Below, piece after piece: positions 5,137-50,392 of a stretch of 52,803 nt of DNA. Every line of letters starts with the position of its first letter. The first letter of the stretch is position 1. A model generated the notes under the pieces. It did not search any database and had not been told where the DNA came from. It saw only the letters and a program-made list of their open reading frames with translations. The position numbers and the translations under genes were made by a program. This stretch comes from a virus (lineage: Duplodnaviria > Caudoviricetes). Location: positions 1 through 52,803 of the IMG/VR virus record IMGVR_UViG_3300006865_000015; one strand, given 5' to 3'.

Positions 5137-5830
5137 CTGCTTCAAGATGGCTGGCTTCGATCCTGCCATCTGGGAAGAACGCAATCGTGATGAAGCCCGT
5201 TGGACTGCCCTTGCGCATAAAAATACCGTCTACAACGCCTACCTGAACTGGACTGTACGTCGTGAAGGTGGACCTGACGAAGCCAGCTACAACAAATACT
5301 TTCCTAAAAACCCCAACCCGCAAGCTCTCACCTTAGAAGAGCAGGCTGAAATGGACCGCTTCGCCGAAAAGTACAAGCATCTTCGCAAGCACGGCGAGTT
5401 CCCTGGCTACTGGCTCCTTGCCTACGAGACTCAACGAGAGAGGGTCAAGCTGCTACAGACCACACCACTGATCCAACTACTCGTGGAACAAGACGAGAAG
5501 TACCTTATCGACAACGGTTGGCGTTGGCCTCTCAAGGTAAAAAAGCTCATTGAGGCAGGCTGGATCATGTCAGAGATTCGAGTGACCTTCACCAAAGCGC
5601 CTACCGCATGGTGGACGCAAGGCGCTATGTTCAGGCTCCATGCTGGTGGCTTGCAAACGAAGCTGCACCGCGTCATTAGCATCACAGGAGACACCATCAC
5701 CTACGAACCTGCAGGTTACACCAACTACGGGTACATGCTTATCAAACCCCGTTCAAAGCGACCCACCACAGAGTCTCTCGCAAAGTTTCGCCAACGAGAG
5801 TGTGTTCCTATTATCGCCGTTGCGGCATGA
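5114..5830 (+). CDS. Hypothetical protein
   Basis: 238-aa ORF coupled to the next gene. Confidence 0.65.
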   Translation: MTTQSILDCFKMAGFDPAIWEERNRDEARWTALAHKNTVYNAYLNWTVRREGGPDEASYNKYFPKNPNPQALTLEEQAEMDRFAEKYKHLRKHGEFPGYWLLAYETQRERVKLLQTTPLIQLLVEQDEKYLIDNGWRWPLKVKKLIEAGWIMSEIRVTFTKAPTAWWTQGAMFRLHAGGLQTKLHRVISITGDTITYEPAGYTNYGYMLIKPRSKRPTTESLAKFRQRECVPIIAVAA

Positions 5831-44730: not shown

Positions 44731-45846
44731 TCAGGCCCCGTTGAGACCGAAGATCAGACCGCAGCCCTTCGGGTTACGGCACTCCAGGGTGCCTTCTTCC
44801 ACGATCTGGCCGATGATCGAGTCACCGAGTTGGCCCAGATCAACTTCCTGCGTCGGACGCAGAACAGCCCACGCGAACCACATCGGATCGTACACCAGCG
44901 CCGAGAAGTTGGCCGTGGTATCGAGACCGGGGACACCCGTGTAGGCAATACCCATCACGTAGTTCGGAACGACCATGATCGCGCCGAAATCCGACTCGTA
45001 GAATTCCACCGACTGGCGGAGCTTGCCCGACGCATCGATGCTACGACGCACGTTGCCGTCGCCAGCGTTCGTGGTCGAGGAGCCAGCCAGCTGGGCACGA
45101 GCCGAGAAGGCACGGCGGTTCGACGGAGACAACATCAGCCTGGAAGCCTTGCCGCCATTCTCATAGATCGCCTGCATCACCGTGTCAACGTGAGCCAGCT
45201 GCAGCGGATTCTTGTCGGCAGACGTCACCGTGGTGAACGTGCCAGCCACACCGCCGCCCGGGTTGGTCGGAGCGGTGTACTCTCCCGGGGTCGTCAGCAC
45301 GTTGAGCGCCGTCGCCGGGGTGCTCGTTGCAGCCGTGTAGTTGACCCACGCTTGATAGCCACCGAACGTGCGGATACCAGCGCCGTTGCTCGACTGCCAA
45401 GTGTTGACAGCACCGAACTCGATGTCACGACGCATTTCCACACCACGCTTCTTCAGCTGGTAGGCGTACTCGTCGGCGACACCGGCCTGATCCACAGCGC
45501 GCTTCGAGCCAGTGACGGTCACGGTCTTGCTGTTGATCTGGCAGTAGTTACCCAGGCGGGTACGGTGCGGTTCAGCGGCTTGCGCAGCGTGTTGCGTCGC
45601 GTACGACACGCCTTCAGCCACAGCACCTTGGACCGGAGGGGCCAGTTCGTCGGTCTGCCACTCGTGCAGAATCGCCTTGGCCTTGGTCTTGCCGATCGAG
45701 CTCAGGAACGGGGTCTCGTCGCGCGAGATCATGCTGATGAAGTTGGCGAGATCTTCCTTCTCACTCGCGTTCGCCGCGTTACCGGTGGCAGCGGCCGAAC
45801 GAATAGCGGCCTTCGGACCGCCAGTGGCAAAGGTATTGCCAGCCAT
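44731..45846 (-). CDS. Major capsid protein (DUF5309 / phiEco32-SU10-like)
   Basis: EDLANFISMISRDETPFLS, HEWQTDEL, NYCQI, YESDFG, EGTLE. Confidence 0.93.
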   Translation of the reverse strand: MAGNTFATGGPKAAIRSAAATGNAANASEKEDLANFISMISRDETPFLSSIGKTKAKAILHEWQTDELAPPVQGAVAEGVSYATQHAAQAAEPHRTRLGNYCQINSKTVTVTGSKRAVDQAGVADEYAYQLKKRGVEMRRDIEFGAVNTWQSSNGAGIRTFGGYQAWVNYTAATSTPATALNVLTTPGEYTAPTNPGGGVAGTFTTVTSADKNPLQLAHVDTVMQAIYENGGKASRLMLSPSNRRAFSARAQLAGSSTTNAGDGNVRRSIDASGKLRQSVEFYESDFGAIMVVPNYVMGIAYTGVPGLDTTANFSALVYDPMWFAWAVLRPTQEVDLGQLGDSIIGQIVEEGTLECRNPKGCGLIFGLNGA

Positions 45847-45903: not shown

Positions 45904-47058
45904 TCACTTCAGCTTCTTGGAGATTGAGCTGATGCCTTTGAGGAAGTCCAGTTGCTGACCAGCGTCACCTTTGCCGCTCAGGACAGTGCTACGCAGGCTA
46001 GCTTGGCTCTTCTTCGCAGCGACGGACGGCGGAGTTCCCTTCTTCACAGGCACAGCCTTTGAAGCAGGAACCTTCTTTTCCGTACGCTTAGACGCACCTT
46101 TCTCAACCGCCTCTTTGAGACTGCGGTAGTCATTGATGAATTTCACTACACGGGCGTCATAGATGGTCTCTAGCAGCGATTCCGGAATGCCTTCTTTCAG
46201 AGCGAAGTCGCGGCACTTGACCGCCACTTCGTCAGTGTAACCCGCGATGAGTTGAGGCGCTTCCTCGGCATATTTCTTCGCCAGGGCTACTTGCTCATCT
46301 TGCACACGCTTCTGGTAAGCAATCGCAACCTTCGCCAGCTTCTCCTTGCGGTTCTGCTGCGCTGCGGCGTATTCTTCTTGGAGCTCACGCATCCGCTCGT
46401 TAGCTTCGCGCGCGGCGTAGGTGTCCCCATTCTTCTTTGCCTCGTCACGGGCCTTCTTGACTTCGCCGTATTGCGCCGCGATAGCGTTCTCCGCAGCAGC
46501 CAGTTCCGTGTTGAGAACATCTGCCAGTTGGATTACTTCAGCCAGTTTCGTTTGACGCTCAGCCTCAACGGCCTTCTTCAAGTCGCCGATTTCTCGACCC
46601 TTCTGCGACAGATGCTGGTCCGTGGCGTATCCCCTGCGGAGATCACCCAAGGAGACTTTGACTACCTTACCGTCAATCTTGACGGGGACAGTCGCCGTCC
46701 AGTCGATCTGCTCTTCTTCGAAATGTGCAACTTCAGTGGTAGACTGCTCGTCATCACCTTGGTCGTCATCTTCGTCGGAGGGCGTCTCGGCTTCCTCACC
46801 TGCGGTTTCTTCGGACGATTCATCGGCATCGGGATCTTCCAATGAGTCATCCTGAGTCGTGTCGCCTTGCTCCTCTTCCTCGTCGGTGGGTAGCGATTCA
46901 TCACGTTCAGCAGCAGCCTGAAGCACAGGGCTACGACGGAGAATGGCATCCAAGGAGGGCAGCGCCGCCTCGCCAGCACTATAAGAGTCGAAGTCAGCCG
47001 ACGAGATTTCGCTCGCGGCGGTCGATTCTACAGCACCAGTGGTATTCTGTTGAGTCAT
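45904..47058 (-). CDS. Capsid scaffolding protein
   Basis: Acidic N-terminus, VKIDG..LRRGY..HLSQKG, coiled coil; upstream of the capsid gene. Confidence 0.85.
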   Translation of the reverse strand: MTQQNTTGAVESTAASEISSADFDSYSAGEAALPSLDAILRRSPVLQAAAERDESLPTDEEEEQGDTTQDDSLEDPDADESSEETAGEEAETPSDEDDDQGDDEQSTTEVAHFEEEQIDWTATVPVKIDGKVVKVSLGDLRRGYATDQHLSQKGREIGDLKKAVEAERQTKLAEVIQLADVLNTELAAAENAIAAQYGEVKKARDEAKKNGDTYAAREANERMRELQEEYAAAQQNRKEKLAKVAIAYQKRVQDEQVALAKKYAEEAPQLIAGYTDEVAVKCRDFALKEGIPESLLETIYDARVVKFINDYRSLKEAVEKGASKRTEKKVPASKAVPVKKGTPPSVAAKKSQASLRSTVLSGKGDAGQQLDFLKGISSISKKLK

Positions 47059-47081: not shown

Positions 47082-47402
47082 TTAGCGATGGTGATTACGC
47101 TTTGCAGCTTTGGCCTCACGGGCTTCTCGCATGCGCTTCGCAAAGGGATTTTCGACTTTGCCTTCTTCGGCTACTGGGCCTTCACCCTCATTGGCTTGAG
47201 CTTCCGCGTCTTCCATCTCCACCACAAGGTCTTGCAGCTGAGAGAGACCCGTCAGGACGAAACTCAGGGCAGGAGCCTGGGAAATGATGCGGTGAACACC
47301 GTTGGAGCCTGCCTTCCGGGCAGAGATGATGGCACGAACGTTGTCTTCGAGAGCGTCTTGGAGCCCTTCGATGGCATCATTCAGTTGGGTTTTGGTCAGC
47401 AT
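47082..47402 (-). CDS. Hypothetical protein
   Basis: AAGGGA RBS; MLTKTQLND.. Confidence 0.6.
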   Translation of the reverse strand: MLTKTQLNDAIEGLQDALEDNVRAIISARKAGSNGVHRIISQAPALSFVLTGLSQLQDLVVEMEDAEAQANEGEGPVAEEGKVENPFAKRMREAREAKAAKRNHHR

Positions 47403-47784
47403 TGTCAGTCCCTTCTTGACTTGATCTTGCATGGGCTCCAGCCTCATCTAGCAGTCGTTGCTGCGATTGCAGGTACTGGGTATTTCTGCCGAGGTTGGAA
47501 AAGTCGATGAGCTTACCCTTGACAGAGCCAAGGGCCATTGCGGTGGCGTAGAGAAACTCGCGCTCCTTCACGCAGTGAGCTTCGGTCTTGAGCCATGCCA
47601 TGAAGATGTCCGATAGGACTTCCCCAAAGGCGGCATCAAAGAATTGCTCCTTCATTTGGTCCGCGAACGAACCCCTCACGATTGCCTCCTGTGCGCTCTG
47701 GGCTGCTTGCGCAGTGGTCACAGTGGCAGGAAACTTGCTACGGACAGCGTTGCGCAATGCAACCTGCTTCCGATCATCAGACAT
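47377..47784 (-). CDS. Head-module hypothetical protein
   Basis: AGGAGG RBS; WLKT..EREFLY. Confidence 0.7.
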   Translation of the reverse strand: MSDDRKQVALRNAVRSKFPATVTTAQAAQSAQEAIVRGSFADQMKEQFFDAAFGEVLSDIFMAWLKTEAHCVKEREFLYATAMALGSVKGKLIDFSNLGRNTQYLQSQQRLLDEAGAHARSSQEGTDNADQNPTE

Positions 47785-47799
47785 GTTAGTCCTCCTAAG

Positions 47800-47850
47800 T
47801 GGTTCCCTCTCCTGGACCAACGAATTAACAGTCCGCTGCGCTAAGAGGGA
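47800..47850 (-). tRNA. Armless tRNA-Asn(GTT)-like element, 51 nt
   Basis: TCCCTCT-TA-GCGCA-GCGGA-CTGTTAA-TTCGT-TGGTC-CAGG-AGAGGGA-A-CCA: perfect 7-bp acceptor stem, Asn anticodon arm, encoded CCA, no D or T arm. Confidence 0.7.
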
Positions 47851-47861
47851 GTAGGTGCGAG

Positions 47862-47887
47862 CCTACCCCGGTTGGGGCCGGGATAGG
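47862..47887 (-). promoter_or_regulatory. Leader hairpin upstream of the tRNA-like element
   Basis: CCTATCCCGG-ccccaa-CCGGGGTAGG. Confidence 0.55.
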
Positions 47888-47893
47888 TTCTGT

Positions 47894-47909
47894 CTGTTAG
47901 GTACCGGCT
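47894..47909 (-). promoter_or_regulatory. Putative phage RNAP promoter, copy 3
   Basis: AGCCGGTACCTAACAG upstream of the scaffold/capsid operon. Confidence 0.55.
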
Positions 47910-47916
47910 AACCGGA

Positions 47917-50217
47917 TCACGCGCCTTGAGCGTTGACCCCTGCAGTCGGGTTCATCATACCAGCGGCAGGCCCGGGAAGCTCCTCGATGGGAGGGGTGCT
48001 GATAGGAGTGCTGGCATCAGTGTTGACCAAGGCCATTATCTCCTTTAGGATACCAATGGTATCAGGCTCAGGCGGCAACTTCGTGGTGTCAATGCCTTCT
48101 TTAACAGCAGCTACGATGGTTTTCATGTATTCCTGCTTGGCCTTGACGACAGCAACCAGAAGTTGTCGAGCATTGTCCTGCATAGCGTTCTTGGTCTGCA
48201 CATTCGTCAGAGCCAGGTTTGCCTGCTTCGTGCTGATGTCCAGCTGCTTGATCTGCTCATCGAGTTTGCGACCCTTCTCAGCAGCTTCGAGCTCTGCCTT
48301 ACGAGACGCTGCGGCCTGCTTCTTGAAGTCCTCAGAAGTGTAGTCCACCAAGAAGTCCAGCGGATCAAGGTCCATCGCTTCGATTGTCTTGCAGGCGATT
48401 CGCACCGCAGCTTCAGGATTGATGGCACCACCAGCACCGGCTTCTTTCAAAGCGGGCAGGATCTGCTTACCAATTACGGACATCTTCTTGATGATGTTCG
48501 AGTTGGAGTGGTCTCCGACGTCAGCGTTGACGTAAAAGTTCATTTCCTCCGGCAGTTCCTTAGGGTCGACACTCTGCAGAAAGTCGTTGTGATCGTAGTA
48601 CTGCATCTTAGTGCCGCCCATCTGCTTGCGCAAGGTTCGGTAGATGCCCTCAACGAGCCGCTTGAAGCCAGTCTCCACAAGACGCCGAGCAATGTACTGG
48701 ATGCGCACTTGCGCCGCCGACATGACGCGATTCAGCTTCTCCTCAGAGTTGCCACTGACGTAGAGCGTGTCGTTCAGACCCTGCGCAGCCTTGGACAGAC
48801 CGTGTGCCTGCTCCTTGTTCTGCTGAAGAACTTGGAGAAGCGGGACCGTACCAGTGCTGATGGTGTCAGGGCTGAGCGGTGCTACGGCGTTCTGCGGGTT
48901 GCCATTCGTAGGGATCAGCTGCTTGGGCTTCATGTTCTGAAGCGCACTGAAGTCCACTACGTTCGGATCAGCCAGCTTGGGCGAGTAGTTCGTCAAGTAG
49001 ACGTTTTCCACAAAGCCACGCAGGATTGCCGTCGAAGCCAAGGTGCTCGGGCGAGCGATGTCTGCTACAGACAGGCCCAAGAACTCGTGAGGAATCTCGA
49101 ACGGGCATAGGCTTGCCATCGGGATGAAGTCACAGTCTTCTTCGACCAGGATTGTCTTGCCTACCGTGATGAATCGCTTGAGCTCAGCAATACCGTCTCC
49201 GTCACGGTCCACTCGGAACCAAGACTCGACCACAGTGATCGGCGTGTTGGCTTCCGTGGTGAAGACGTCGCGAGCATGGTTGTTCATCCAGTATTCTTGC
49301 CCGGTCAGCATCTTGCGAATGGCAGACTCCTCAGTGTACTTCGAAGCCCAGTCCATTTCGCCGTCACCAACTTCGCTCCAATTCACGAGCTCAGCCCGCT
49401 CAGGCCAGTAGGTACGGATCTCCGAGCGAGTCATCTCATAGGTGACGCCCAGGTAGGATGCGTCTTCGATGCAGGTGGCATCACGCGTGACGCGGAAGTT
49501 CTCCGGAGGGACCGTGTTGATGGCGATCCGGTTGCGAGAGATCTTCTCCCGAAGTCGAACGTCCTTGTATACGTTGGTGTACTCCGTAGCGTCAGGCGTC
49601 AGAAGTTGAGGCTCGTATTGAAGCTCACCGACAACTTCTACGTTCTCCTTGGCAAGCTCCAGATCGAGTTCCATCTGTGTGATGGTCTCGAACTCACGGA
49701 ACTTGTACTCGTGGTCTTCGACGAAGCCCCACCGAATGATGGAGTTCTTCCACATCAGAGCTGACTTGAGCCAAGTATTGAGCTTCGCCCAGCCGTCGTT
49801 CTGACGGAAGACGACGTAGTTCACAAGGTCCGAGGCTACGACTGCTTGATGGATGGCGGTCGGGCTATGGCTGGTCGGTACGAACTTCGCAATCTTGTTG
49901 TTGTTCAGCAGCAGTTCTGACAGGATTGCGGTGTAACCCTCGATAGCCTCCACTGTGTCAGAACTCACAAGCTGACTCACACCTTGCGGGGATAGATGAC
50001 CCACCGGCAGCATACCGTACTCCAGCGTACTCTTTTGGCGCTCTGTGGCCAGTGATGCTGAATTGAGGAAGTCACCTACGGAGTTCTTGATGCCATCCGA
50101 GATCATCGTGATCAGGGTGTCATCGTCAACTGCAACTTGGTAGCCGTCTGGGGCGGGCGGAGCGGTTGTTGCGTGCTCCTCGTTCTGATCACTCAGATCA
50201 ACACGGTCTTCAATCAT
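47917..50217 (-). CDS. Portal protein
   Basis: VSSDTVEAIEG, D.DGDGIAEL, PHEFLGLS; TGAAAGGA RBS supports start at 50217. Confidence 0.92.
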   Translation of the reverse strand: MIEDRVDLSDQNEEHATTAPPAPDGYQVAVDDDTLITMISDGIKNSVGDFLNSASLATERQKSTLEYGMLPVGHLSPQGVSQLVSSDTVEAIEGYTAILSELLLNNNKIAKFVPTSHSPTAIHQAVVASDLVNYVVFRQNDGWAKLNTWLKSALMWKNSIIRWGFVEDHEYKFREFETITQMELDLELAKENVEVVGELQYEPQLLTPDATEYTNVYKDVRLREKISRNRIAINTVPPENFRVTRDATCIEDASYLGVTYEMTRSEIRTYWPERAELVNWSEVGDGEMDWASKYTEESAIRKMLTGQEYWMNNHARDVFTTEANTPITVVESWFRVDRDGDGIAELKRFITVGKTILVEEDCDFIPMASLCPFEIPHEFLGLSVADIARPSTLASTAILRGFVENVYLTNYSPKLADPNVVDFSALQNMKPKQLIPTNGNPQNAVAPLSPDTISTGTVPLLQVLQQNKEQAHGLSKAAQGLNDTLYVSGNSEEKLNRVMSAAQVRIQYIARRLVETGFKRLVEGIYRTLRKQMGGTKMQYYDHNDFLQSVDPKELPEEMNFYVNADVGDHSNSNIIKKMSVIGKQILPALKEAGAGGAINPEAAVRIACKTIEAMDLDPLDFLVDYTSEDFKKQAAASRKAELEAAEKGRKLDEQIKQLDISTKQANLALTNVQTKNAMQDNARQLLVAVVKAKQEYMKTIVAAVKEGIDTTKLPPEPDTIGILKEIMALVNTDASTPISTPPIEELPGPAAGMMNPTAGVNAQGA

Positions 50218-50271
50218 TGGGGTTCCTTTCACAGCGGCGTCTAGCACAGACAGCCCTAGCTGGATGTTGTA

Positions 50272-50392
50272 TGGTGAGAGGCCCACCCGAGGCTTCTAGC
50301 GACAGGGTGGGCCAATGTTGATGCTTCTCCCATAGGGGCGCATCTTCCTAAGCCCCTCGGCCTTGCGGCCAGCAGGAGGACTAGGCCTGCTT
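50272..50392 (-). ncRNA. Structured intergenic RNA candidate upstream of the portal
   Basis: Four stems, one GCAA tetraloop, two possible pseudoknot pairings. Confidence 0.35.

Follow-up and report, generated by a model that had tools for sequence, protein, structure and literature searches.

The window examined here, by which we mean the whole stretch of 52,803 nucleotides that was analysed, is an entire IMG/VR virus record of 52.8 kb, with an estimated genome completeness of 86%. On its minus strand, a portal gene of the SU10 type (47917–50286; Pfam PF23899, SU10_portal, E 1.6e-117; PHROG 1216) is followed by an ORF of 135 amino acids taken from the ORF list (47377–47784, with its ATG at 47784), by a scaffolding protein gene (45904–47058; PHROG 3927) and by the gene of an SU10-type major capsid protein, which was recognized by a family search (44731–45846). 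The spacer between the portal stop codon and the 135-aa ORF is 132 nt long. Read along the minus strand, it contains a 26-nt block, a 10-bp hairpin, an 11-nt linker, a 51-nt element of the tRNA-Asn type (read from 47850 to 47800), 3 nt and the ribosome-binding site (RBS) AGGAGG (47796–47791), which starts 4 nt past the CCA of the element and precedes the ATG.

An earlier note on this DNA, made from the sequence alone, had listed a promoter, a hairpin, a mini-tRNA, an RBS and the head genes in that order. The hairpin, the mini-tRNA, the RBS and the ATG are indeed arranged in this way, but the promoter is not confirmed: a scan of the minus strand between 47600 and 48100 for sigma-70-type promoters and intrinsic terminators returned none. 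Since neither kind of site was found (the scan being limited, for promoters, to sigma-70-type sites), the element is probably co-transcribed with the head genes, and the claim that it lies in a spacer ahead of these genes, one predicted to be transcribed, is supported by its position between the portal gene and the 135-aa ORF.

The 135-aa ORF had no match in Pfam or PHROG. It is nevertheless conserved at the same position in more than 100 related loci, with an invariant core of AW(L/C)KTEA and HC(V/S)KERE, and its sole match to a cultured phage, detected by tblastn against GenBank phages, is a distant one in Roseobacter phage CRP-7 (51.5% identity, covering half the ORF). A listed ORF of 121 amino acids (47082–47447) shares 71 nt (47377–47447) with the end of the 135-aa ORF; its true start may be located further downstream.

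The 26-nt block (47888–47913) directly follows the portal stop codon. As can be seen from alignments, it is identical in the window, in two relatives designated L002 and L003 (ca. 5171–5196 in L002) and in a third, L088 (ca. 1429–1454), in contrast to the adjacent ORF, where 35% of third codon positions differ. It occurs once in the window even when three mismatches are allowed, and a search with a pattern built from it matched only two contigs, both already known to us. The block could be a regulatory or processing site. We abandoned the possibility of a repeated phage promoter motif in the conserved 18 nt downstream of the portal stop, as this stretch does not recur within the window.

The GC-rich 10-bp hairpin next to the block (47862–47887) lies outside the tRNA-like element. 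Its counterparts were located at 5190–5224 in L002, 1448–1478 in L088 and 5520–5560 in a more distant relative, L004; the hairpins were compared by separate folds, for MAFFT misaligns that of L004. The folds have z-scores of −2.5 in the window, −3.9 in L088, −6.0 in L002 and −4.4 in L004, and the pairing is conserved in all four through changes on both sides of the stem. Among 25 distinct spacers of distant relatives inspected by eye, about 18 have a similar hairpin in front of the ORF, often with a T-rich stretch behind it. The hairpin is probably a leaky terminator or else a hairpin that stabilizes or helps to process the mRNA.

The 51-nt element itself (47800–47850, minus strand) is a remnant of a tRNA-Asn(GTT) gene, as judged from its sequence and from its alignment with the 76-nt gene of L002 and L003. 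Deletions have removed the tops of its D and T arms, and it keeps the acceptor stem, the anticodon arm, the variable region, a discriminator base A73 and the encoded CCA. The 5′ strand of the acceptor stem (47850–47844) and its 3′ strand (47810–47804) form Watson-Crick pairs at all seven positions, including U1-A72 (T at 47850 with A at 47804). The acceptor 5′ strand is followed by a 7-nt connector (47837–47843), which, according to the alignment, consists of positions 8 and 9, four bases of the D stem and position 26. The D-arm deletion relative to L002/L003 comprises 12 nt (the inner stem and the loop), with the junction between 47840 and 47839. The anticodon arm (47820–47836), identified by a pattern match, has a 5-bp stem (47836–47832 and 47824–47820), in which U40 at 47823 makes one of the five pairs a G-U pair, and a 7-nt loop (47831–47825) that carries U33, GTT at 47829–47827 and a purine, A37. 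Downstream are a 5-nt variable region (47819–47815) and 4 nt left of the T arm (47811–47814) after a deletion of 13 nt, for which the alignments allow three placements owing to a 2-nt CC repeat. The acceptor 3′ strand is followed by A73 (47803) and the CCA (47802–47800).

The hallmarks of a tRNA that can be recognized are thus a 7-bp acceptor stem, a 5-bp anticodon stem, a 7-nt loop, U33, a purine at position 37 and CCA. The canonical cloverleaf with its elbow of D and T arms, as modelled by RF00005, is not present, 12 nt and 13 nt having gone from the two arms. The description given in the earlier note holds apart from the strand, which is the minus strand, and from a miscount in the D arm, whose rest was said to be 5 nt long and in fact amounts to four stem bases within the 7-nt connector. 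That both arms have been lost while both stems and the CCA have been kept is clear from the sequence and from the alignment to the 76-nt gene.

The 17-nt pattern of the anticodon arm has one match in the window, compared with a mean of 0.01 in dinucleotide shuffles when two mismatches are allowed. RNAfold predicts a bulged two-stem shape for the element with an energy of −19.1 kcal/mol and a z-score of −2.07, 8 of 200 shuffled sequences being equally stable. ARAGORN in bacterial mode reported zero genes across the window, a scan of the entire record with Rfam RF00005 gave zero matches, and no tRNA match was obtained between 47300 and 48400 with Rfam at E-values up to 10, as one would expect from the earlier prediction that standard scanners would miss the element. 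The permissive Rfam search also returned an IMES-2 match at another site (E 8.2), which we attribute to chance. When run in the metazoan-mitochondrial mode, ARAGORN called exactly 47800–47850 on the minus strand as Asn(gtt). This call alone is weak because the same mode makes nine calls in the window, the others at places that bear no further sign of a tRNA; it is more than chance because a full tRNA-Asn occupies the same place in relatives.

These relatives were found in IMG/VR. Portal searches retrieved five and four loci, and three of the five span the spacer; L001 (portal 90% identical) stops before it and L005 consists of the portal start only. L002 and L003, whose portal is 84% identical to that of the window, share its 26-nt block and RBS context and have a hairpin in the corresponding position, and ARAGORN detects a 76-nt tRNA-Asn(gtt) gene between the hairpin and the RBS (5230–5305 in L002 and 6359–6434 in L003). 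Alignments show that the window element is colinear with this gene save for two gaps, one of 12 nt in the D arm and one of 13 nt in the T arm. A full gene at the same place and within the same flanks confirms the derivation from tRNA-Asn that had been claimed before, and we regard the tRNA-Asn origin of the element as proven by synteny. In the third informative locus, L004 (portal 78%), the hairpin is followed by the RBS and there is no tRNA.

An alignment search with the 135-aa ORF extended the comparison to 80 viral and 28 metagenome loci. Among the former, only the contigs of L002 and L003, recovered here a second time, gave a tRNA with ARAGORN (2 of 80); among the latter, a single record did so (1 of 28), whose 11,619 bases match the L003 contig in length. 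On these counts, the tRNA is a trait of one small subclade. Two further relatives, both metagenome contigs, are much closer to the window. In L088, whose 135-aa ORF shares 91% amino acid identity with that of the window, the 26-nt block and the hairpin are directly followed by the RBS, and the tRNA is wholly absent. L089 (downstream ORF with 86% amino acid identity) is a short metagenome contig that begins within the tRNA; in the part that is present, the T arm is intact, G73 and CCA are in place, and the acceptor 3′ strand resembles that of the window.

The ORF DNA of the window shares 83.6% identity with that of L088 and 82.6% with that of L089, as against 90.2% between L088 and L089; for third codon positions alone, the respective values are 65%, 65% and 82%. 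We take the branching order from these DNA identities, the protein tree leaving the window, L088 and L089 unresolved. On this basis, L088, which lacks the tRNA, and L089, which has the full one, are sisters with the window outside, and this relation implies that a full gene present in the ancestor was degraded on two separate occasions. One small clade thus contains the full, the mini and the absent form. The mini form itself was encountered once: a pattern of its T-arm junction had zero other matches in IMG/VR, being absent from L088 and L089 as well, and blastn of 47300–48400 against GenBank phages gave no match. In the spacer of relatives, which the earlier note had proposed to compare, the outcome speaks against its inference of selection: they have either a full tRNA (L002 and L003, and the 3′ part in L089) or have lost it completely (L088 and L004).

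Two positions set the element apart from the tRNA-Asn genes with which it was compared. G73 is found in 26 of 26 other genes and the window has A73; C40 is found in 25 of 25 and the window has U40. The 26 genes are those of the two relatives L002 and L003, 18 from other viral contigs, 5 from four bacterial genomes (Sulfurivirga, Pokkaliibacter, an Acidobacteria MAG and a Piscirickettsiaceae MAG) and that of L089. The patterns with which they were collected left out position 73 and accepted either C or T at position 40. The same anticodon arm occurs in 20 viral contigs and the four bacterial genomes, always with C40. The features of tRNA-Asn that the earlier note had given for E. coli agree with the bacterial genes in these four genomes. 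In PMC9976931, the bacterial asparagine identity set is given as the anticodon plus G73, with U1-A72 serving the amidotransferase route. The window retains the GUU anticodon and U1-A72 and lacks G73.

A 42-nt pattern from the L002 tRNA had zero matches in bacterial genomes. A shorter tRNA pattern matched four genomes of mixed phyla, too few and too mixed for a host to be assigned. The 18 other viral contigs with tRNA-Asn genes (L116–L133) are otherwise unrelated IMG/VR contigs of 8 kb to 367 kb, several of them above 200 kb; their tRNA-Asn genes have identical anticodon and T arms, near-identical acceptor stems and AT-rich flanks, and the one in L124 lacks an encoded CCA. The full-length genes of L002 and L003 have peculiarities of their own, namely a T instead of the C that 23 other tRNA-Asn genes have at position 32, and a T-T mismatch at acceptor pair 6-67. 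Since tRNA-Asn is a target of PARIS-type defence, the change at position 32 might, by analogy, be a variant that evades a nuclease. According to PMC12409363, the PARIS effector AriB has tRNA-Asn(GUU) among its documented targets and cuts it between positions 40 and 41.

The acceptor stem has evolved within the clade. Four of its pairs differ between the window and L002, with changes on both sides, and the 3′ strand of L089 differs from that of the window at two positions, both of which are paired in the window. Such changes on both sides of the stem, relative to L002 and L089, indicate that pairing was selected somewhere in the lineage. Past selection for pairing is, however, what one expects of a working tRNA, and it is uninformative on the time after the deletions. 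Selection on the mini form is not demonstrable because a second copy was not found in IMG/VR.

The earlier note had reasoned that the intact stems, with both arms lost, point to selection for a new role. From the divergence at third codon positions, we estimate ca. 0.24 changes per neutral site on the branch of the window. The chance that none of the 24 stem bases is hit would be 0.003 if the element had been neutral along the whole branch and, by a rough neutral calculation, ca. 0.17 when averaged over an unspecified time of inactivation. Intact stems are compatible with recent neutral decay, and the step from them to a new role is not supported. Outside of the acceptor stem, only two point changes separate the element from the tRNA-Asn consensus, which suggests that inactivation was recent.

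Taken together, these data make it likely that the element is a recently inactivated pseudogene of a phage tRNA-Asn(GTT). It occupies the orthologous position of a full tRNA and is colinear with it (L002 and L003, and L089 for the 3′ part); it has lost essential parts and has changed at fixed positions (arm tops, A73 and U40); and it is dispensable, given that L088 and L004 have no tRNA here and that the reduced form is not conserved. In the simplest history, an ancestor of the subclade would have gained a tRNA gene inside the late structural transcription unit, and, in common with other phage tRNAs, its product would have been excised from the transcript. A common ancestor with the full tRNA-Asn would then have given rise to lineages in which the gene was kept (L089, and L002 and L003), lost whole (L088) or shortened by two internal deletions (the window).

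Replication slippage across a stem-loop yields deletions of hairpin tips. Each of the two deletions may have arisen in this way, as the loss of the tip of an arm hairpin, and slippage of this kind would produce arm-shaped deletions without selection. The edges of the T-arm cut carry the 2-nt CC repeat; the D-arm deletion, with L002 taken as the ancestor, lacks a repeat at its edges, which speaks against slippage there. As part of the 5′ untranslated leader of the 135-aa ORF, the remnant RNA would still be transcribed, and it is predicted to fold as a bulged hairpin of about −19 kcal/mol that ends 4 nt before the RBS. It would have no tRNA function, as both the elbow used by bacterial RNase P, EF-Tu and the ribosome and the identity base G73 are gone. 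The elbow is the point from which bacterial RNase P measures, and mitochondrial tRNAs that lack it go together with co-evolved partners, as stated in PMC4919913. The remnant is probably without a selected function. The 26-nt block and the hairpin upstream look, from the pattern of sequence conservation, more clearly selected than the tRNA remnant does.

Several arguments can be raised against decay. The deletions spare both stems with their 12 pairs, the CCA and the distance to the RBS, an outcome that two random deletions would not necessarily have. Fifty-one nucleotides persist, and phages usually purge useless DNA quickly, as L088 did. Selection for pairing may have lasted beyond the deletions. 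Finally, U40 lies at the AriB cut site and could be an evasion change instead of a product of drift.

A first rival explanation is that the bulged hairpin and the CCA have been exapted and are kept as a structural or processing element that serves the mRNA, be it as a cleavage site for RNase P, RNase E or an RNase Z-type enzyme, as a message-stabilizing 5′ stem or as a means of tuning the RBS. We consider this unlikely, yet it has some points to recommend it. The full tRNA of L002/L003 and L089 is equally tight against the RBS, so that processing of the tRNA would already cut the mRNA at this place and a remnant might retain that role; moreover, the fold is stable (−19.1 kcal/mol), and stems, CCA and spacing have been retained. 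On the other hand, L088, L004 and nearly the whole wider family manage without such an element here, the z-score of −2.07 is modest given that 8 of 200 shuffles do as well, and the search of IMG/VR with the junction pattern provided no second copy in which covariation could be followed. The T arm and the elbow that bacterial RNase P uses, as described in PMC4919913, are also gone. The broader proposition that the remnant is kept, whether it diverts a defence aimed at tRNAs, as a decoy or competitor, or marks a cleavage site by which the head-gene mRNA is released, appears quite improbable to us.

A decoy for an anticodon nuclease deserves separate treatment. The anticodon stem-loop of tRNA-Asn would, by analogy, soak up or block a tRNA-cutting defence of the host without having any role in translation. 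PMC12409363 reports that tRNA variants of phage T5, including tRNA-Asn, counter PARIS, and its authors consider that some viral tRNAs may inhibit AriB by competition. The entire anticodon arm is kept in the window, and position 40, which is next to the AriB cut, differs from the consensus. However, U40 is equally explicable as neutral drift, the element occurs once and its closest relatives have a full tRNA or nothing, no nuclease is known to accept an armless substrate, and an RNA located in an mRNA leader without a means of release would be present in low copy. We therefore rate a decoy function as very unlikely. The parallel with AriB may bear more on the question of why the relatives carry tRNA-Asn at all.

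An artefact of assembly or sequencing, with the two deletions absent from real phage DNA, is a still fainter prospect. Hairpins can cause local errors and the sequence comes from one sample only, a single DNA sequencing run, possibly of the source sample, having been matched to this stretch and no RNA run being among the matches listed. Against this, a contig of a second assembler (Logan; 58,593 nt, mean depth 26) is identical over 47600–48050 without gaps or variants, with the reservations that it was possibly built from the same reads and that such a contig cannot reveal minor variants.

Bacteria are not known to have partners co-adapted to armless tRNAs. A working minimal tRNA, processed, charged and translating like the armless mitochondrial tRNAs of enoplean nematodes, can practically be set aside, for although the ARAGORN mitochondrial model accepts its shape and size and the acceptor stem is perfect, the anticodon loop canonical and the CCA present, that mode is unspecific (nine calls in the window), A73 replaces the identity base G73 (PMC9976931), relatives carry normal tRNAs, and armless tRNAs reportedly need co-adapted EF-Tu and CCA-adding enzymes (PMC12221289 and PMC7730189).

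As a pseudogene, the element is of little importance in itself, and its significance would be wider only if the remnant were a processed and selected RNA; if it were indeed kept, it would, as a functional armless tRNA-like RNA, be without precedent outside animal mitochondria. What the locus offers is a clean snapshot of the loss of a phage tRNA gene, with whole, shrunken and absent copies in one clade, and it dates the event by which an uncultured group of SU10-like phages acquired tRNA-Asn within its late structural operon. It also indicates that deletions of arm hairpins can mimic the "armless" shape without selection, which calls for caution when phages are scanned with relaxed tRNA models. 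Given that PARIS targets tRNA-Asn, the full-length copies of the relatives may be of interest.

The armless tRNAs of enoplean mitochondria range from 42 to 54 nt in size. The window element, at 51 nt, has the same architecture; a conserved reduced form with covariation was not found for it. The tRNAs reported from Romanomermis culicivorax (PMC3579883, PMC6158502) resemble it in having two stems, short connectors and a length of ca. 50 nt, but the enoplean molecules are conserved and expressed, belong to an organelle and have co-adapted enzymes, whereas the window element is single, belongs to a bacterial virus and lacks G73. In the literature searched, no armless tRNA of a bacteriophage was found, judging by titles and the beginnings of abstracts, and among the matches listed on phage tRNA pseudogenes, none treats such a remnant by its title.

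With the 3′ tRNA-like structures of viruses and with elements cut by RNase P, the window element shares a tRNA-derived fold embedded in a longer transcript. Structures of this kind generally retain the elbow or the stack of acceptor and T arms that is recognized by enzymes; the window element, unlike them, has neither.

Closer at hand is the phage tRNA-Asn(GUU) of L002/L003, with which the element has in common its origin, genomic place, anticodon arm, U1-A72 and CCA and from which it differs by the absence of 25 nt of arm tops, by A73 instead of G73 and by being missed by bacterial models. The tRNA-Asn of phage T5 is described in PMC12409363 as helping to counter the PARIS defence. The element also resembles tRNA pseudogenes and remnants of phage and bacterial genomes in its homology to a working tRNA, the loss of essential parts, the changes at fixed positions and a patchy distribution among relatives. 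Remnants of tRNA genes are usually end fragments, such as the 3′ parts of tRNAs that are duplicated at integration sites. Unlike these, the remnant in the window keeps both ends and has lost two internal arms, which leaves it with a tidy, hairpin-like shape.
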